Source: Eledone cirrhosa (Eukaryota). Taken from it: 64,000 bases of DNA. The stretch is taken from positions 130,510,001 to 130,574,000 of the forward strand of contig OZ024742.1 of assembly GCA_964016885.1 (NCBI GenBank), read 5' to 3'. The notes under the pieces were generated by a model. That model did no database searches. It saw only the letters and a program-made list of their open reading frames with translations, and was not told where the DNA came from. Positions 24,240 through 55,480 of the stretch are shown piece after piece (position 1 is the stretch's first letter; every line of letters starts with the position of its first letter). The position numbers were made by a program, and so were the translations under genes.

Positions 24240-25030
24240 TTTTAGTTTGCGTGCTGAGAAACTAAATTAGAAAATTGAAGAAAAAATTCACCTAGCTTTT
24301 GCCTGAAAGTCACCACGATCACAGCTATTGAGACGTCTTCGGATTTTAGTTACTGTATCTGCAACAGCATTAAAGGCACATTCAACAAAATATATTGTAG
24401 GAAAGGACAAAAGCACTAAAGCACTCACTTTGATATTTTGTAGGTTAATTTGTTATATTTAGCAACGACTTGAGGAACGAGTCACAGCGTAGTTTTGAAT
24501 TTGAAGCATGGCTCAGTTTCACGCCATGTGTCTCAATCTTACATGTCCATTAACTCGTCAAACCGTTTTAACCTGACAAACATTATTTCTCGGATTAAAG
24601 AGAAATGGCTGAGCAATCCAAGAAAGGAAGTTCGTTTACTTCAACCCACTGAATCTATCGCAATTGACTTTTGTTAGCCATCGTACACAGAGTAGCAGAA
24701 TACCTATAAATGGTCTGGTCTAGATGTATATGAATTAAACGAAGTCACGCAAAATAGGAAACTTTGTAAGGTACTAAATCATGTTAGTGCGCAATCTGCT
24801 GTTGGCGGAGACAGCGAATGAAGATGATGACATGGATTAGCAGTCTCATATAGTTTTCATAATGCTCTTACAGAATTCTTTGAATAATCTTACAGTCTTT
24901 GGATAGGCAGTTATCATATTTACCTCTTTTATCTTCTTCATTAATTCATACAACGTAGGGCTAAGCTTAGCAGTTGCAAAATTCTCTCTGTAAATATTAC
25001 AGTCGATTGAACATTTGAAAGTATATACTT
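24240..25030 (-). pseudogene. Highly decayed hAT (Charlie/Buster-type) transposase fragments
   Basis: Minus-strand peptides LLSFPTIYFVECAFNAVADTVTKIRRRLNSCDRGDF (hAT C-terminal dimerisation-like) and DCNIYRENFATAKLSPTL (HCxxHRE-like); multiple stops. Confidence 0.6.
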
Positions 25031-25104
25031 TCCTTATGCATATTAACGGCTGAGCAGCCTAATTTACATATCGAGTGAGCAGCCTAATTTGTAAGGAAGG
25101 TATA

Positions 25105-25145
25105 CGGTGCTGATGACAGCTAATAAGCTAGAAACTAGTTCATCG
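25105..25145 (+). ncRNA. Minimal type I hammerhead ribozyme in a Penelope-type pLTR (element ~25050-25395)
   Basis: CGGTG-CTGATGA-cAGCT-AATA-AGCTa-GAAAC-TA-GTT-CATCG; downstream sequence is homologous to the arms of the 36.3-kb palindrome. Confidence 0.75.
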
Positions 25146-25405
25146 TTCCTTTGTCAGTGTTGAAAAAAATGGCAACGATGGTTGCCGAACACTGTACGGC
25201 TAGTAATTCGGGTGTTTGTTTACAAACAAACCGAGCATTATAATAAATGTTCGGTAAACCCATACGTACATATATATATGTGTGTGCATGTATGTATGTA
25301 TATACATACTACTGTACGTCTGTATACATATATGTATGTACGTATACATACTTATATTTAAGTATCAGCCGTACTAAGAGTGAGAAATGAAATTTAATTT
25401 TTTCC

Positions 25406-25440
<35 letters not shown>

Positions 25441-25492: not shown

Positions 25493-25536
<44 letters not shown>

Positions 25537-25577
25537 AAGTGTTAAAACGATCAAATTTTAGTTTAGAACATTTATTA

Positions 25578-25622
25578 GCTGACAATTGTTTCTTCCAGAG
25601 GGAAGTCTGGAATCATCGGAGC
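25578..25622 (-). ncRNA. Hammerhead ribozyme, CCGAUGA core variant
   Basis: Minus strand GCT-CCGATGA-TTCCAGA-CTTCCC-TCTGGAA-GAAAC-AATT-GTC-AGC. Confidence 0.75.
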
Positions 25623-26223
25623 ATAAGGAATGTCGAAAATGTGTAACTAGAATCCTAGTCATTTAGAACATTTAGGGTACATAATTGTTATTAGTGTCAT
25701 AGGCATCGTGTGGAGATTCAGAAGTTAAAAAGATGTTCCGCTTGAAATAACACAATTACAGGCAGCACTGGTTGGAAGTGTAATAGGTATAAGTAAAAGT
25801 AAAAAGCACAAGCCAAAAAACCACAAGCAAAAAAACACAGGGAAAGAAGTTATAAGCAAGGACAATTGGTGTACAATGCAGGAGTCAATACAGTCAATAA
25901 TGCATGTATGTGGAAAGAGCATTATAACTCTTTCCTCATACATCCATTATTGACTGTATTGACTCCTGCATTGTACACCAATTGTCCTTGCTTATAACTT
26001 CTTTCCCTGTGTTTTTTTGCCTGTGTATTTTTGCTTGTGGTTTTTACTTTTAGTTATACCTATTATACTTCCAACCAGTGCTGCCTGTAATTGTGTTATT
26101 TCAAGCGGAACATCTTTTTAACTCCTGAATCCCCACATGATGCCTTTGACACTAATAACAACTATGTACCCTAAATGTTCTAAATGACTAGGATTCTAGT
26201 TACACATTTTCGACATTCCTTAT

Positions 26224-26268
26224 GCTCCGATGATTCCAGACTTCCCTCTGGAAGAAACAATTATCAGC
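26224..26268 (+). ncRNA. Hammerhead ribozyme, mirror copy with ATC triplet
   Basis: GCT-CCGATGA-TTCCAGA-CTTCCC-TCTGGAA-GAAAC-AATT-ATC-AGC-TAATAAA. Confidence 0.65.
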
Positions 26269-26439
26269 TAATAAATGTTCTAAACTAAAATTTGATCGTT
26301 TTAACACTTTGTATCTCGGCTCTTTAAAACAGTTGAAAATTTTGCATTGAACTTTTTGTCATACCGGTAACTGGCTAGTACTTAGTACTACCCTCCATAT
26401 TTATAGTTATATCACATATATAAATATAAATATAAATGT

Positions 26440-35964: not shown

Positions 35965-36049
<85 letters not shown>

Positions 36050-36114
36050 GTATATATAAACGGAAAGAATGAAACGAAATTTCCTTTCCCACTCTCAGTA
36101 CGGCTGTTACTTAA

Positions 36115-36568
36115 ATATAAGTATGTACACGTACATACATATATGTATACAGACGTACAGTAGTATGTATATATATACATACATGCACACATATATATAT
36201 GTATGTATGGATTTACCGAACATTTGTTATAATGCTCGGTGTGTTTGTAAACAAACATCCCGTATTAAGCCGTAGTGTCCACCAACCATCGTTGCTCGTT
36301 CAACACTGACAAAGGAACGCTGTACTAGTTTCAAGCTTATTAGCTTGAAACTAGTACAGCGTTCCTTTGTCAGTGTTGAACAAAGAGCAACGATAGTTGG
36401 TGGACACTACGGCTTAATACGGGATGTTTGTTTACAAACACACCGAGCATTATAACAAATGTTCGGTAAATCCATACGTACATATATATATGTGTGCATG
36501 TATGTATATATATATACATACTACCGTACGTCTGTATACATATATGTATGTACGTGTACATACTTATA
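36115..36568. mobile_element. ~450-bp palindrome of a Penelope-type pLTR centred on HHR stem II
   Basis: Centre GTACTAGTTTC-AAGCT-TATT-AGCTT-GAAAC-TA-GTA-CAGCG; arms homologous to 25117-25360. Confidence 0.88.
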
Positions 36569-36640
36569 TATATATATAATGAAATACTGTGTGCTTCTTG
36601 CTCATAATAATTTCTATACTTTTCATTTATATATATATAT

Positions 36641-45031: not shown

Positions 45032-48000
45032 TGGTGACATGATAAAACCTTTCCATCTCACAAGATCCAACATTAACTGTCTCAGTTCTTCACCAGACAA
45101 TTCTATATCTTTGTGGTGACATGATAAAACCTTTCCATCTCACAAGATCCAACATTAACTGTCTCAGTTCTTCACCAGACAATTCTATATCTTTGTGGTG
45201 ACATGATAAAACCTTTCCATCTCACAAGATCCAACATTAACTGTCCTCAGTTCTTCACCAGACAATTCTGTATCTTTGTGGTGACATGATAAAACCTTTC
45301 CATCTCACAAGATCCAACATTAACTGTCTCAGTTCTTCACCAGACAATTCTGTATCTTTGTGGTGACATGATAAAACCTTTCCATCTCACAAGATCCAAC
45401 ATTAACTGTCTCAGTTCTTCACCAGACAATTCTGTATCTTTGTGGTGGCATGATAAAACCTTTCCATCTCACAAGATCCAGAATTAACTGTCCTCAGTTC
45501 TTCACCAGACAATTCTGTATCTTTGTGGTGGCATGATAAAACCTTTCCATCTCACAAGATCCAACATTAACTGTCTCAGTTCTTCACCAGACAATTCTAT
45601 ATCTTTGTGGTGACATGATAAAACCTTTCCATCTCACAAGATCCAACATTAACTGTCTCAGTTATTCACCAGACAATTCTATATCTTTGTGGTGACATGA
45701 TAAAACCTTTCCATCTCACAAGATCCAACATTAACTGTCTCAGTTATTCACCAGACAATTCTATATCTTTGTGGTGACATGATAAAACCTTTCCATCTCA
45801 CAAGATCCAACATTAACTGTCTCAGTTATTCACCAGACAATTCTGTATCTTTGTGGTGACATGATAAAACCTTTCCATCTCACAAGATCCAACATTAACT
45901 GTCTCAGTTCTTCACCAGACAATTCTGTATCTTTGTGGTGACATGATAAAACCTTTCCATCTCACAAGATCCAACATTAACTGTCCTCAGTTCTTCACCA
46001 GACAATTCTGTATCTTTGTGGTGACATGATAAAACCTTTCCATCTCACAAGATCCAACATTAACTGTCTCAGTTATTCACCAGACAATTCTGTATCTTTG
46101 TGGTGACATGATAAAACCTTTCCATCTCACAAGATCCAACATTAACTGTCTCAGTTCTTCACCAGACAATTCTGTATCTTTGTGGTGACATGATAAAACC
46201 TTTCCATCTCACAAGATCCAACATTAACTGTCCTCAGTTCTTCACCAGACAATTCTGTATCTTTGTGGTGACATGATAAAACCTTTCCATCTCACAAGAT
46301 CCAACATTAACTGTCTCAGTTATTCACCAGACAATTCTGTATCTTTGTGGTGACATGATAAAACCTTTCCATCTCACAAGATCCAACATTAACTGTCTCA
46401 GTTCTTCACCAGACAATTCTGTATCTTTGTGGTGACATGATAAAACCTTTCCATCTCACAAGATCCAACATTAACTGTCCTCAGTTCTTCACCAGACAAT
46501 TCTGTATCTTTGTGGTGACATGATAAAACCTTTCCATCTCACAAGATCCAACATTAACTGTCCTCAGTTCTTCACCAGACAATTCTGTATCTTTGTGGTG
46601 ACATGATAAAACCTTTCCATCTCACAAGATCCAGAATTAACTGTCCTCAGTTCTTCACCAGACAATTCTGTATCTTTGTAGTGACATGATAAAACCTTTC
46701 CATCTCACAAGATCCAACATTAACTGTCCTCAGTTCTTCACCAGACAATTCTGTATCTTTGTGGTGACATGATAAAACCTTTCCATCTCACAAGATCCAA
46801 CATTAACTGTCTCAGTTCTTCACCAGACAATTCTGTATCTTTGTGGTGACATGATAAAACCTTTCCATCTCACAAGATCCAACATTAACTGTCTCAGTTC
46901 TTCACCAGACAATTCTGTATCTTTGTGGTGACATGATAAAACCTTTCCATCTCACAAGATCCAACATTAACTGTCTCAGTTCTTCACCAGACAATTCTGT
47001 ATCTTTGTGGTGACATGATAAAACCTTTCCATCTCACAAGATCCAACATTAACTGTCTCAGTTCTTCACCAGACAATTCTGTATCTTTGTGGTGACATGA
47101 TAAAACCTTTCCATCTCACAAGATCCAACATTAACTGTCCTCAGTTCTTCCACAGACAATTCTGTATCTTTGTGGTGACATGATAAAACCTTTCCATCTC
47201 ACAAGATCCAACATTAACTGTCTCAGTTCTTCACCAGACAATTCTGTATCTTTGTGGTGACATGATAAAACCTTTCCATCTCACAAGATCCAACATTAAC
47301 TGTCCTCAGTTCTTCCACAGACAATTCTGTATCTTTGTGGTGACATGATAAAACCTTTCCATCTCACAAGATCCAACATTAACTGTCTCAGTTCTTCACC
47401 AGACAATTCTGTATCTTTGTGGTGACATGATAAAACCTTTCCATCTCACAAGATCCAACATTAACTGTCCTCAGTTCTTCACCAGACAATTCTGTATCTT
47501 TGTGGTGACATGATAAAACCTTTCCATCTCACAAGATCCAACATTAACTGTCTCAGTTCTTCACAAGACAATTCTGTATCTTTGTGGTGACATGATAAAA
47601 CCTTTCCATCTCACAAGATCCAACATTAACTGTCTCAGTTCTTCACCAGACAATTCTGTATCTTTGTGGTGACATGATAAAACCTTTCCATCTCACAAGA
47701 TCCAACATTAACTGTCTCAGTTCTTCACCAGACAATTCTGTATCTTTGTGGTGACATGATAAAACCTTTCCATCTCACAAGATCCAACATTAACTGTCCT
47801 CAGTTCTTCCACAGACAATTCTGTATCTTTGTGGTGACATGATAAAACCTTTCCATCTCACAAGATCCAACATTAACTGTCTCAGTTCTTCACCAGACAA
47901 TTCTGTATCTTTGTGGTGACATGATAAAACCTTTCCATCTCACAAGATCCAACATTAACTGTCCTCAGTTCTTCCACAGACAATTCTGTATCTTTGTGGT

Positions 48001-50879
48001 GACATGATAAAACCTTTCCATCTCACAAGATCCAACATTAACTGTCTCAGTTCTTCACCAGACAATTCTGTATCTTTGTGGTGACATGATAAAACCTTTC
48101 CATCTCACAAGATCCAACATTAACTGTCCTCAGTTCTTCACCAGACAATTCTGTATCTTTGTGGTGACATGATAAAACCTTTCCATCTCACAAGATCCAA
48201 CATTAACTGTCTCAGTTCTTCACCAGACAATTCTGTATCTTTGTGGTGACATGATAAAACCTTTCCATCTCACAAGATCCAACATTAACTGTCCTCAGTT
48301 CTTCCACAGACAATTCTGTATCTTTGTGGTGACATGATAAAACCTTTCCATCTCACAAGATCCAACATTAACTGTCCTCAGTTCTTCCACAGACAATTCT
48401 GTATCTTTGTGGTGACATGATAAAACCTTTCCATCTCACAAGATCCAACATTAACTGTCTCAGTTCTTCACCAGACAATTCTGTATCTTTGTGGTGACAT
48501 GATAAAACCTTTCCATCTCACAAGATCCAACATTAACTGTCTCAGTTCTTCACCAGACAATTCTGTATCTTTGTGGTGACATGATAAAACCTTTCCATCT
48601 CACAAGATCCAACATTAACTGTCTCAGTTCTTCACCAGACAATTCTGTATCTTTGTGGTGACATGATAAAACCTTTCCATCTCACAAGATCCAACATTAA
48701 CTGTCTCAGTTCTTCACCAGACAATTCTGTATCTTTGTGGTGACATGATAAAACCTTTCCATCTCACAAGATCCAACATTAACTGTGCTCAGTTCTTCCA
48801 CAGACAATTCTGTATCTTTGTGGTGACATGATAAAACCTTTCCATCTCACAAGATCCAACATTAACTGTCTCAGTTCTTCACCAGACAATTCTGTATCTT
48901 TGTGGTGACATGATAAAACCTTTCCATCTCACAAGATCCAACATTAACTGTGCTCAGTTCTTCCACAGACAATTCTGTATCTTTGTGGTGACATGATAAA
49001 ACCTTTCCATCTCACAAGATCCAACATTAACTGTCCTCAGTTCTTCACCAGACAATTCTATATCTTTGTGGTGACATGATAAAACCTTTCCATCTCACAA
49101 GATCCAACATTAACTGTCTCAGTTCTTCACCAGACAATTCTCTATCTTTGTGGTGACATGATAAAACCTTTCCATCTCACAAGATCCAACATTAACTGTC
49201 TCAGTTCTTCACCAGACAATTCTGTATCTTTGTGGTGACATGATAAAACCTTTCCATCTCACAAGATCCAACATTAACTGTCTCAGTTCTTCACCAGACA
49301 ATTCTGTATCTTTGTGGTGACATGATAAAACCTTTCCATCTCACAAGATCCAACATTAACTGTCTCAGTTCTTCACCAGACAATTCTGTATCTTTGTGGT
49401 GACATGATAAAACCTTTCCATCTCACAAGATCCAACATTAACTGTCCTCAGTTCTTCCACAGACAATTCTGTATCTTTGTGGTGACATGATAAAACCTTT
49501 CCATCTCACAAGATCCAACATTAACTGTCTCAGTTCTTCACCAGACAATTCTGTATCTTTGTGGTGACATGATAAAACCTTTCCATCTCACAAGATCCAA
49601 CATTAACTGTCTCAGTTCTTCACCAGACAATTCTGTATCTTTGTGGTGACATGATAAAACCTTTCCATCTCACAAGATCCAACATTAACTGTCTCAGTTC
49701 TTCACCAGACAATTCTGTATCTTTGTAGTGACATGATAAAACCTTTCCATCTCACAAGATCCAACATTAACTGTCCTCAGTTCTTCCACAGACAATTCTG
49801 TATCTTTGTGGTGACATGATAAAACCTTTCCATCTCACAAGATCCAACATTAACTGTCTCAGTTCTTCACCAGACAATTCTGTATCTTTGTGGTGACATG
49901 ATAAAACCTTTCCATCTCACAAGATCCAACATTAACTGTCTCAGTTCTTCACCAGACAATTCTGTATCTTTGTGGTGACATGATAAAACCTTTCCATCTC
50001 ACAAGATCCAACATTAACTGTCTCAGTTCTTCACCAGACAATTCTGTATCTTTGTAGTGACATGATAAAACCTTTCCATCTCACAAGATCCAACATTAAC
50101 TGTCCTCAGTTCTTCACAAGACAATTCTGTATCTTTGTGGTGACATGATAAAACCTTTCCATCTCACAAGATCCAACATTAACTGTCCTCAGTTCTTCAC
50201 CAGACAATTCTATATCGTTGTGGTGACATGATAAAACCTTTCCATCTCACAAGATCCAACATTAACTGTCCTCAGTTCTTCACCAGACAATTCTATATCT
50301 TTGTGGTGACATGATAAAACCTTTCCATCTCACAAGATCCAACATTAACTGTCCTCAGTTCTTCACCAGACAATTCTGTATCTTTGTGGTGACATGATAA
50401 AACCTTTCCATCTCACAAGATCCAACATTAACTGTCTCAGTTCTTCACCAGACAATTCTGTATCTTTGTAGTGACATGATAAAACCTTTCCATCTCACAA
50501 GATCCAACATTAACTGTCCTCAGTTCTTCACCAGACAATTCTGTATCTTTGTGGTGACATGATAAAACCTTTCCATCTCACAAGATCCAACATTAACTGT
50601 CTCAGTTCTTCACCAGACAATTCTGTATCTTTGTAGTGACATGATAAAACCTTTCCATCTCACAAGATCCAACATTAACTGTCCTCAGTTCTTCACCAGA
50701 CAATTCTATATCTTTGTGGTGACATGATAAAACCTTTCCATCTCACAAGATCCAACATTAACTGTCTCAGTTCTTCCACAGACAATTCTGTATCTTTGTA
50801 GTGACATGATAAAACCTTTCCATCTCACAAGATCCAACATTAACTGTCTCAGTTCTTCACCAGACAATTCTGTATCTTT
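45032..50879 (-). repeat. Homogeneous 82/83-bp tandem satellite (~70 copies) embedded in an RTE-like LINE 3' fragment
   Basis: Unit GTGGTGACATGATAAAACCTTTCCATCTCACAAGATCCAACATTAACTGT(C)CTCAGTTCTTCACCAGACAATTCTGTATCTTT; no unique spacers. Confidence 0.97.
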
Positions 50880-51702: not shown

Positions 51703-51755
<53 letters not shown>

Positions 51756-51902
51756 TATTTTCCGTTGTGTTGTAATATAAATATTACACACAGTAGATTA
51801 TCAGCTCACGTAGAGTTTGCTCGACGGTTCCAGTTGTAGTTCCAAAAGTAATCCGGAGAAAAATAGAAAGATTTGAATGGATACAGTTTAGTTGAAAGGA
51901 AT

Positions 51903-52019
51903 TTATTGACACGTGTTTCTATAACAGTTACATAACCTAAAACAGCTATCTACAAACTTTTAGTTATGCAGACATTCAATATTTCAATGTTATTATTTAC
52001 TGTCATTTCATCAGAATAA
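51903..52019 (-). ncRNA. Hammerhead ribozyme in the inverted pLTR copy
   Basis: Reverse complement of 55173-55289. Confidence 0.8.
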
Positions 52020-52061
52020 TATTACTGAGGACCTATTTAGTTTTTATAGAGAATATTATAG

Positions 52062-53726
52062 AGAATATTCGGTTTTAGGACTTGTAAAAACCCACCCACC
52101 AACCCACTATTAGATGCATTTGAGCAGGACCTTATGAACTTAATCCTTAAAATTAAATTCAAAGGACGCAACACCAACAGCAAATTACAGAAAGATATAA
52201 AAAAACTACTGGACGACCTTAAAAACACCAAAGGAATTGTAGTAAAAGCGGACAAAACATCAAACCTGTACACTATGGATTGCACTACATACAACAACTT
52301 CATTCGAAAAGAATTACATAAAAAATATAGAAAAACGAGTGAAGTAACCCTTAAGCACATCAATGATGAGGCATGCGAAATAGTGAAAAATCTCGGAATC
52401 GAAGATAGGACAGGACCACTCTTACCGGCGGTACCCACCTTCAATCTTAAGGACCACAAGGTAAACTTTGATAATGACCCTAAAATTAGATTAATCTGCC
52501 CCTCTAAATCAGATATAGGTAAATTAAGCAAATATATCTTAGATAGAATCATCCCCCAAATTAAGGCTAAGGTTAACATTAAACTCTGGGGGAAGACCCA
52601 GGAAGCAATAAGATGGTTTAATAGCATTAGCAATAAGAATAAATCTAAGTTTATCCAGTTTGATATCGATGAATATTACTCATCGATATCACCTGAAACT
52701 TTGAATAGAGCCATTAAGTTTGCTAAGGATAACTCTGACCTTACAAACGATGAAATTAAGATTATATTAGAAGCTAGGAAAACTATAGTCAAATTTGAGA
52801 ACAGTTATTGGGTACGTAAAGATAGACCCTCTAACTTTGACATAACAATGGGCTCTAACGATTCGGCGGAAATAACTGATATTGTGGGGTTATTTATCGC
52901 CTTTAGACTCCAGGAAAAAATCAGCAATCTCCACGGCGGAATATACCGCGACGATGTTCTCCTCCTAGCTAAAAACCTTAATAACCAAAAACTAGAAAAA
53001 CTACGCAAAGATATAAGAAAACTACTACTCAAAATAGGACTAACTATAACATATGAATACAACCTTAAAGTAGTTAACTTCCTGGATGTCACACTCAATT
53101 TAAACTCTGGTTTGATTAAACCGTTTCATAAATTGAATGAAAATCTCAAATACGTAAATGTTGGGTCTAACCACCCCTTCTCTATAATTAAATCTATCCC
53201 TAAAAATATTTCCCTTAGAATCTCGGGTCTATCTTCTAACATACAAGTATTTAAGGAACACGCCGAGTACTACGATAACGCCCTTAGTAAAGCAGGCTAC
53301 CTCAACAAAATAGAGTACATAGATGGGAACAATCAAAACACCCAAAATAAATCCCACATAGGTAGATATAATAACACAACACCAAACCACACTTACTACC
53401 ATAGTATGTACACCAGTAAACCAACAAACAAAACTAATAGAAAGCGATGCAAAGAGTACTTATGGTATAACCCCGAATACAATAGCTCCATTAGTACAAA
53501 TTTACCAGTACTCTTCTTTAAAATAATTAAAAGACATTTTCCCACATCACACAAATACCACAAAATCCTAAACCCTACCACTATAAGACTGTCATACTCT
53601 ACAGCGTTAAACCTTGAACAACACATAAAAAAGATCAATACTAGAAGGTTAAACGAAAACACTAAGAACTTAAGTACAAAGAACACAAAAAAAAACAGTA
53701 GACAATACACTACAGAACATAAATAA
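52062..53726 (+). CDS. Penelope-like reverse transcriptase (5'-truncated; frame is open upstream of the ATG at 52134)
   Basis: FGFRT..PP, KADKT, LKDHK, RLICP, FDIDEYYSSI, ITMGS, YRDD, FLDVTL, SNHP, WYNP, LSYS motifs. Confidence 0.93.
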   Translation, partial: RIFGFRTCKNPPTNPLLDAFEQDLMNLILKIKFKGRNTNSKLQKDIKKLLDDLKNTKGIVVKADKTSNLYTMDCTTYNNFIRKELHKKYRKTSEVTLKHINDEACEIVKNLGIEDRTGPLLPAVPTFNLKDHKVNFDNDPKIRLICPSKSDIGKLSKYILDRIIPQIKAKVNIKLWGKTQEAIRWFNSISNKNKSKFIQFDIDEYYSSISPETLNRAIKFAKDNSDLTNDEIKIILEARKTIVKFENSYWVRKDRPSNFDITMGSNDSAEITDIVGLFIAFRLQEKISNLHGGIYRDDVLLLAKNLNNQKLEKLRKDIRKLLLKIGLTITYEYNLKVVNFLDVTLNLNSGLIKPFHKLNENLKYVNVGSNHPFSIIKSIPKNISLRISGLSSNIQVFKEHAEYYDNALSKAGYLNKIEYIDGNNQNTQNKSHIGRYNNTTPNHTYYHSMYTSKPTNKTNRKRCKEYLWYNPEYNSSISTNLPVLFFKIIKRHFPTSHKYHKILNPTTIRLSYSTALNLEQHIKKINTRRLNENTKNLSTKNTKKNSRQYTTEHK

Positions 53727-54213
53727 ACCACACCTAAGTTCGTCCGCAATACTACTCCAGAGAAAACCCAACGTACACAACTGTAACTGCACCTATCCTG
53801 ACAACTGCCCCCTCGGCAATAACTGCATGGAAAAAAATATTATTTATAAGTGTACCATTAAATCCGGAGGCAACGAGTGGTATTACGTGGGATCAACGGC
53901 AACAACGTTTAAATCTCGATTGTATAGGCATTCTTACTCAATAAAACACCAGAGCCAAAGAAATGTAACAACTCTAGCAGAAAAAGCTTGGCCGCTCAGG
54001 GATAGCGATCAAAAGTTTACCCTAAAATGGGAAAAATTAGCTAAAACCCAAAGCTTTTCCAGGAGCCAAAATTTCTGCAAATTGTGTAATCTTGAGATTT
54101 ATTACATAATCACACACAAGAAGAAACTGCTGAATAACAGAATTGAACGAACATTATTCTGCCGTCACAGAACTAAAACCCTTTTTTCCCACTACAAGCC
54201 GAATATTACATAA
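53696..54213 (+). CDS. Cys-rich linker and GIY-YIG endonuclease of the Penelope-like element (+1 frame relative to RT)
   Basis: HNCNCTYPDNCPLGNNC, NIIYKC...YYVGST...FKSR..RH, CKLCNLE, LLN.R.E...CRH. Confidence 0.92.
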
Positions 54214-54530
54214 AAGAGGGACATCCCCCAACTATATAAACCTTAATCTAGTTAGAAAAATATAAAAACAATCTCTTCTCAACATATAATAATAACCTTA
54301 AATTACCATACTAATAATGAAAAGATATGCTGATGAGAATAGGTACAAATATGCGATAATGAATGTGTCTAAAAACGTCCATAAGTATGTATATATATGT
54401 GAAAATGTATATAAATAAGTAAATATATATATATATGTTTGATGTGTATAGTTAGATGTAAGTGTATTCATGTATTAAAGTGCTTATATATATATGTATA
54501 TGTATATGTGTGTATATGTATGTATGTGTA

Positions 54531-54619
<89 letters not shown>

Positions 54620-55172
54620 GTGTATATGGATGTGTATGTATGTGTATGTGTGTACACATGGACTAGAGTATGTATGTATATATGTGTGTGTCTATACGTG
54701 AGTATATAAAGATAAGTTGAGTATGAAAATGTATACACATGAGCGCGTATGTATGTACATAAATACATGTGTGTATATATGTGTATGCATGTGTATATAT
54801 ATGTAAGTATGAATATGTGAATTGTGTGTATATGTATTTTGTAGAGGTGTGCAAATATATTTGTGTGTGAATGCGTGGGTGAAAGGATACGTACACTTGA
54901 AAGAAAAATTTAAGTCTGAATGTTAATTAAGTGCAAACACAAAACCAACCACGCATCATATCTTCACTATCTCTAATCCTTCTATAGATTTAGAAAAATA
55001 ACCAATAATATATTCTATAAAAAATGTCAAAACAACAGATGGGAATCTAATTACTCGCTGCCACCAAGAATTCTCACTGCTATCGAAAAACCACTCCTTC
55101 AACTATTCTTCTAACAACTTCACCCCTCCCTCCTAATATTCTCTATAAAAACTAAATAGGTCCTCAGTAATA

Positions 55173-55289
55173 TTATTCTGATGAAATGACAGTAAATAAT
55201 AACATTGAAATATTGAATGTCTGCATAACTAAAAGTTTGTAGATAGCTGTTTTAGGTTATGTAACTGTTATAGAAACACGTGTCAATAA
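55173..55289 (+). ncRNA. Type I hammerhead ribozyme with greatly extended stem-II region
   Basis: TTATT-CTGATGA-aATGACAGT-(~70 nt)-ACTGTTATa-GAAAC-ACGT-GTC-AATAA. Confidence 0.82.
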
Positions 55290-55480
55290 ATTCCTTTCAA
55301 CTAAACTGTATCCATTCAAATCTTTCTATATATATATATAGTAAGGTGTATTATTGGTTGTGTCATACGGTCCAATAAACTTTTGTTACCAATATTAAGT
55401 TCTCCACGCTTTTGTATAACATATGGGGGACAAAAACTCTAGTGAGTGAACATATCAAGGATTTGAAGACAATTCATTTT

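Follow-up and report, generated by a model that had tools for sequence, protein, structure and literature searches.

A palindrome centred on a hammerhead stem in Eledone cirrhosa is a head-to-head retrozyme insertion, probably primed from both target strands

How does a retroelement insertion come to be mirrored about the loop of its own ribozyme? The question was raised by a palindrome near 36 kb in a window of 64,000 nucleotides of the Eledone cirrhosa genome (contig OZ024742.1). An earlier note on this DNA placed the symmetry axis in the stem-II loop of a type I hammerhead and proposed that nascent cDNA had folded back on stem II and primed its own second strand. The palindrome and its axis proved real: the core AAGCT-TATT-AGCTT lies at 36333-36346, with the loop at 36338-36341, and is bordered on both sides by mirrored GAAAC-TA-GTA-CAGCG. 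Across 36112-36572 the arms share 95.4% identity; they differ by 4-5% with indels counted and are unequal in length, the minus-strand arm extending on to 36056. As the note had also described, the CTGATGA half of the ribozyme is replaced by a mirror of the 3' half; the CUGANGA half is absent from both copies, so neither can be an active ribozyme. The parental ribozyme reads CTGACGA-T-AGCT-AATA-AGCT-T-GAAAC, and its stem II has four pairs because a T.T mismatch closes the stem, the fifth pair in the palindrome being a product of the mirroring. The microhomology at the junction follows from the self-complementarity of AGCT. The features of the locus and of related copies are collected in Table 1.

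Table 1. Features of the palindrome near 36 kb, of the family copy near 25 kb, and loci with short family pieces (positions are those of the window).
Feature	Position or loci	Strand	Remarks
Palindrome, tailed arm	36056..36345	-	stem II (unit position -13), cleavage site, tailed 3' end (unit ~285)
Palindrome, tail-less arm	36342..36569	+	stem II 3' strand to tail-less 3' end (unit ~229)
Inversion junction AGCT-TATT-AGCT	36334..36345	.	stem II and loop of the parental hammerhead; 4 nt microhomology
Tail of ~56 nt, on a single arm only	36056..36114	-	
Hammerhead 3' half GAAAC-TA-GTA	36347..36364	+	stem I 3' strand; cleavage site follows 36356; mirror copy at 36315-36332
Candidate 14-nt target-site duplication, left copy	36046..36059	+	13/14 identical; within a TA repeat, weak alone
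Candidate target-site duplication, right copy	36566..36579	+	partner of 36046..36059
Sister-subfamily copy, tailed 3' end	25094..25411	+	intact type I hammerhead core at 25110-25140
Inverted fragment of the same retrozyme family (L001)	25000..25079 (about)	-	head-to-head with the copy at 25094 via a 14-nt insert; axis off stem II
Short pieces ending after the cleavage site	L032, L048, L064, L067, L076, L083, L084, L111, L165		

The family to which the palindrome belongs has the sequence organization of a non-coding, tandem, Penelope-like non-LTR retrozyme with putative self-cleavage. The host genome (3.0 Gb) contained 29,383 exact matches to a 19-nt anchor at the cleavage site of the family. 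Spacing between successive anchors gave a monomer of ~420-470 bp in five subfamilies; the 56 monomers delimited in this way measured 340-530 nt, each carried a hammerhead, and tandem arrays reached at least seven units. The earlier note had allowed that the family consensus might itself be palindromic, which was not the case: the consensus describes a monomer in direct tandem, its ribozyme motif intact. We identified 197 copies of the hammerhead motif, 64 of them distinct. The core and stem III were set by the search pattern, so pairing is informative for stems I and II; among the distinct motifs stem I was paired in 49-58 and stem II in 60-63, with pair types that varied by subfamily. The pair closing stem II was T.T in 45, C.A in 13 and G-C in 5, and the canonical G10.1-C11.1 was thus mostly lacking. 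By its core (CUGANGA ... GAAA ... NUH) and stems I-III the family qualifies as a carrier of a type I hammerhead motif, which matches the canonical metazoan type I motifs given in PMC4209133. A young subfamily (L039, L044, L052, L163 and L169), 98-100% identical to its own consensus, has a canonical G-C-closed stem II of five pairs, with a compensatory change in L169, and is the best candidate for an active ribozyme.

Copies of the family were 5'-truncated, seated in TA repeats, and ended at unit positions ~229 or ~285; 11 of 19 position-ordered loci contained a head-to-head junction. Truncation at the 5' end, partial tandems, an inverted 5' copy, a single tail and a short target duplication are the features of Penelope-like insertion, and all were observed. 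The description of the locus as a hammerhead-bearing Penelope-like element with an inverted 5' copy is borne out. Short family pieces that stop at unit positions 10-24, just past the ribozyme cleavage site, were also noted, often within complex junctions. They may be jumps of the reverse transcriptase onto cleaved RNA 3' ends, and the search anchor biases toward such pieces.

The family was also compared with described elements. It resembles the animal non-LTR retrozymes in its non-coding tandem unit, in the single type I hammerhead of each unit and in a short palindromic stem III, and the axolotl HHR_Amex2 retrozymes in a U.U mismatch at the base of stem II (PMC7229834). Tens of thousands of copies are a further likeness to the animal retrozymes as described, whereas the monomer of 420-470 bp is somewhat longer than the cited ~300 bp. 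Retrozymes are described as derived from Penelope pLTRs (Li et al. 2026, 10.64898/2026.07.22.740005); head-to-head insertions, tails and target duplications do not appear in the relevant passages of the retrozyme accounts (PMC7229834, 10.64898/2026.07.22.740005). Passages on Penelope-like insertions describe an inverted 5'-truncated copy, a one-ended tail, a short duplication, AT-rich or microsatellite targets and junction palindromes (PMC3846280, PMC8557442), all of which the family shares. Unlike Penelope-like elements, the family has no ORF, and its tail of ~56 nt compares with the 30-40 bp cited; its duplication of 13-14 nt compares with 8-10 bp in the Adineta elements (PMC3846280).

The copy near 25 kb had been taken for an unfolded, intact hammerhead of the same family (25105-25395). 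It does contain an intact type I core, but it belongs to a sister subfamily (87.5% identical) and is itself part of a head-to-head insertion, with a junction ~16 nt upstream of the ribozyme core. In a 141-base scan it gave a weak match to Rfam Hammerhead_HH9 (E 0.0021, 21.5 bits, below the gathering score of 52), and the Rfam scan of the whole window returned no hammerhead, only simple-repeat miRNA look-alikes. When the ribozyme region of this copy was folded freely, the hammerhead fold was not the minimum, which is commonly so for such motifs.

Other repeats were noted in the window and near family copies. A second head-to-head palindrome, of another family, occupies 25534-26400; its arms are 96% complementary about an 8-nt centre (25920-25927), with a hammerhead-like CCGATGA ... 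GAAAC motif in each arm at a distance of ~290 nt from the axis. Its left arm ends at a TA repeat and its right arm is ~90 nt longer. The element at 51750-55329 has inverted ends of 196 bp that are 100% identical (51863-52058 and 55134-55329), the left one extending ~110 nt more to a TA repeat. On inspection by eye its two frames, 52062-53723 (554 aa) and 53674-54210 (179 aa), resemble Penelope frames; they matched nothing in Pfam, nor either of two local Penelope proteins in tblastn. At 45250-50690 lies a tandem array with an ~83-bp period. The flanks of L001-L030 hold numerous unrelated palindromes (100-1,300 bp, perfect or almost so) near family copies, which suggests that other families in this genome insert likewise.

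The positions of inversion junctions were examined across the genome, where the earlier note had predicted a peak at stem-II loops. An axis exactly at the single stem-II loop was found at seven loci, which differ in their flanks, arm lengths and subfamilies and so are not copies of one founder. Mirrored anchors with 0-60 nt between them gave 86 junctions, mostly asymmetric joins of two unrelated truncation points. Among the 21 with a spacer of <=26 nt, 12 used stem II (six one-loop, five loop-less AAGCTT and one two-loop), making stem II a local junction hot spot. A hand count of 12 head-to-head pairs among the first 100 of the 29,383 anchor matches leads to an estimate of ~3,500 inversions, of which the one-loop stem-II class represents ~0.2%. 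Far hotter was a hairpin outside the ribozyme, GTTTGT-TT-ACAAAC, 85 nt downstream of stem II, where 81 junctions fell in a 44-nt interval and 29 of 47 examined sat on the hairpin itself, or about 50 loci when scaled to 81. Background junction density was similar in the stem-II and GTTTGT/ACAAAC regions (about 36 and 31 by hand estimate), and of the four regions probed the latter had the highest peak; the palindrome AAAGTATATACTTT and the stem-III palindrome served as further axes. The predicted peak is present as a local hot spot only, and the ribozyme-as-primer proposal does not pass the test that the note had set for it. These counts draw on 50 of 86, 50 of 81 and 50 of 52 junctions, with three of the 50 at the GTTTGT/ACAAAC hairpin left out of the 47; the samples were not random, being chosen by pattern at a few anchors from the first places listed, and the duplicated loci L042 and L043 were removed beforehand together with overlapping loci.

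Predicted DNA hairpin energies were -3.5 to -5.9 kcal/mol for GTTTGT/ACAAAC and -2.2 kcal/mol for stem II, and a cDNA end at the loop-less AAGCTT was predicted to form no hairpin (0.0 kcal/mol). For the zero-, one- and two-loop joins, the predicted duplex energies were -5.8, -3.8 and -5.0 kcal/mol. Over the 43 of 53 junctions that lack an insertion, microhomology averaged 2.3 nt against 0.68 nt under the null; with the stem-II classes removed the mean was 1.4 nt, still in excess (p 5e-6). Target duplications of 13-14 nt were present at seven of eight informative loci, compared with 5% of mismatched pairs.

The two ends of each inversion were then compared. Of 76 clean inversions, 71 paired a tail-less with a tailed arm, where independent ends would give 50% (p 3e-16); this count covers inversions with two canonical ends and leaves out 39 further junctions with a non-canonical one. 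The tailed arm ends ~56 nt beyond the tail-less site. Single-armed insertions used both ends equally (10:11), and fold-back of cDNA started at the tail-less site should consequently yield many tail-less/tail-less palindromes. Inversions shorter than one unit comprised 3 of that kind and 39 mixed.

Nesting of the arms was assessed as well, because a folded-back strand copies only itself and the mirror arm must then be contained in the loop-bearing arm. Even on the most generous reading, and with 13 ties excluded, neither arm was nested in 20 of 58 decidable mixed-end inversions, the other 38 being nested; single-unit inversions, counted by hand, were 17 nested and 16 non-nested. Non-nesting did not rise with age (5 of 12 young and 15 of 46 older inversions). 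The arm reaching further 5' was the tailed one in 12 cases and the tail-less one in 13, and 2 cases were tied, a count that became 13:13:1 after hand correction of the 36-kb palindrome. At stem II the longer arm was the loop-bearing one at four loci and the mirror at four, with one undecidable, and at the GTTTGT/ACAAAC hairpin the split was 12:12 with 4 equal. The earlier suggestion that the longer minus-strand arm identifies the original holds insofar as the loop-bearing arm is longer at the 36-kb palindrome, but this is no rule, given the opposite at four of eight decidable stem-II loci. Mismatch-tolerant junction calling had over-extended the arms of the 36-kb palindrome, L034, L036, L037, L040, L060 and L069, which were corrected by hand or scored as ties.

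Subfamily markers were used to compare the source of the two arms. None of 32 loci had two or more markers discordant between arms, against 47% of random pairs, and the two arms of an inversion thus nearly always share one source. A single source fits one particle and is equally predicted by fold-back, so it does not separate these models. A first screen had flagged arms from different subfamilies at 12 of 66 loci; the stricter marker test left none, and at least one was an alignment artefact, so that an origin from two templates is not put forward as general. At L062 the arms carry different subfamily blocks, and a few junctions at other axes look similar; the sequence of L062, the sole clear case, suggests two RNA templates within one insertion.

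The family and its intact ribozyme motif, the two fixed 3' ends, the one-of-each rule, the target duplications, the microhomology and the self-complementary hot spots are direct observations. The 36-kb palindrome is a head-to-head retrozyme insertion, and we consider it probable that each nicked target strand primed one cDNA and that the two cDNAs were joined by annealing of their ends. A Penelope-type RT/GIY-YIG enzyme would nick both strands of the TA-repeat target ~13 nt apart, with the tailed site (~285) serving as the start of one cDNA and the tail-less site (~229) as that of the other, on the same RNA or on sibling RNAs within one particle. Both cDNAs would stop early, at independent points, and their 3' ends would anneal through a few complementary bases, for which self-complementary motifs are best suited, and then extend on each other. 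At the 36-kb palindrome the unfinished ends would have annealed at the AGCT of stem II, which on this account would be merely one of several microhomology patches.

We infer that the mobilising enzyme is one of the RT + GIY-YIG Penelope-like elements of this genome. Among coding Penelope inversions, of which seven were examined, the four that were readable (L206, L210, L212 and L214) have one tailed arm each and lie in TA repeats, the other three having unreadable ends; the one-tail rule therefore extends to the coding Penelope families (RVT_1 + GIY-YIG) of the same genome. A parent coding element with a common pLTR was sought with blastn and nhmmer, and none was found among 45 GIY-YIG loci (25 + 20; of 10,596 candidates), the strong matches at these loci being family copies adjoining them and not a common pLTR. 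A hammerhead-like motif lies directly 3' of the RT + GIY-YIG frame in L204, L205, L209 and L214, and a second such motif was seen in repeats near these frames at L186, L210 and L217. L206 and L214 are multi-kilobase head-to-head palindromes. For Penelope-type elements in general, we lean toward a fixed two-primer reaction within one particle, probably of a dimer, in which one target strand would be primed at the tailed and the other at the tail-less start of a single RNA, the overlapping cDNAs then joining by annealing of their ends.

Priming from both ends of a target has a counterpart in LINE-1 twin priming, in which cDNA synthesis reportedly starts at each target end and the two products are then linked. 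In L1 the second primer anneals internally, giving two pieces without overlap, whereas in the two-primer account the arms are two copies of one 3' stretch, begun at two fixed sites, and the product is therefore a palindrome. Twin priming likewise yields an inversion inside one target duplication (PMC2837659, 10.1101/2024.12.14.628481), so that priming from both target ends, joining of the cDNAs and a single target duplication are common to the two. Biochemical parallels come from the anole Poseidon element PAc, for which in vitro work described nicking and extension of both strands, with reverse transcription starting at either of two sites that flank the tail (Frangieh et al. 2024, PMC11167929). 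The same source describes a predicted dimer, an AT-rich target and insertion without a need for ribozyme cleavage. Its main text does not assign the start sites to inverted arms, a link that we draw here from the genomic counts. The literature searched, which included few subscription papers, contained neither a two-primer model for Penelope inversions nor a stem-II primer; self-priming and L1 twin priming are already known.

The chief alternative is self-primed fold-back, in which one cDNA or antisense RNA folds on a hairpin, stem II being one of several that could serve, and templates the mirror arm; flips of the centre at a later stage would then scramble which arm carries the loop. It is the published proposal for Penelope palindromes, the junction palindromes having been interpreted as self-priming by Arkhipova et al. 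2013 (PMC3846280), while PMC8557442 calls the origin of tandem and inverted Penelope-like insertions unresolved; the present counts favour two priming events instead. Fold-back accounts for the clustering of junctions at hairpins, the stronger predicted hairpin being the hotter one, and for the shared source of the arms and the nesting of 38 inversions. The 36-kb palindrome is itself nested, with two rare variants common to both arms, which makes fold-back possible for this single locus. Recombination between arms after insertion could also invert the centre and make nesting a less sharp criterion. However, some young copies are already non-nested, and a single folded strand cannot give the 20 non-nested inversions. 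The hairpin is absent at the loop-less AAGCTT junctions, though AGCT-AGCT slippage could delete the loop later, and near the ribozyme the majority of junctions are asymmetric with 0-3 nt of homology. Fold-back would further need an additional rule by which the mirror arm finishes at the opposite end site (71 of 76 inversions) and tail-less-started cDNA does not fold back; the argument from one-of-each ends and equal single-arm use is independent of centre flips. We therefore regard fold-back as unlikely.

Origins outside the insertion reaction are more doubtful still. Short inverted repeats can seed palindromes in DNA repair, a point on which passages about self-annealing ends bear (10.1101/2024.12.14.628481), and a deletion joining two copies, or template switching at a small inverted repeat during replication, could act after insertion; yet both arms end at the fixed ends of the family, with a single duplicated target around them. 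A spreading MITE-like founder does not fit seven stem-II loci of differing flanks, arm lengths and subfamilies, nor a consensus that is a tandem monomer with an intact ribozyme. A MITE or palindromic element is likewise contradicted by the direct-tandem consensus and by centres that vary among the 86, 81, 52 and 23 junctions of the four regions. An assembly artefact was considered because, in contigs of four runs over 36043-36625, the family was present at high depth in two of the four runs and no contig spans the whole palindrome; a fold-over of reads is at odds with arms that diverge by 4-5% with indels. Taken together, post-insertion origin, founder and artefact seem improbable.

Least probable of all is a special, selected role for stem II as second-strand primer or RT stop, as the earlier note's ribozyme hairpin doubling as a primer would have it: the seven exact loci and the 12 of 21 short-spacer junctions speak for it, and it is largely refuted by the ~50 loci at a non-ribozyme hairpin. 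Also against it are the small share of the one-loop class, a stem II of only four pairs in these subfamilies, loop-less joins about as frequent as one-loop joins (five and six), the non-nested inversions, and a second hammerhead-like palindrome in the window with its axis ~290 nt from the motif.

A ribozyme acting as primer would have meant a second job for the hammerhead, and the genome counts argue otherwise. If the two-primer reading is true, thousands of natural junctions in one family test, and oppose, the published self-priming reading, and the rule would tie the in vitro observation of two RT start sites to inversions found in genomes. Head-to-head insertion is one of the main origins of short palindromes in the Eledone cirrhosa genome.
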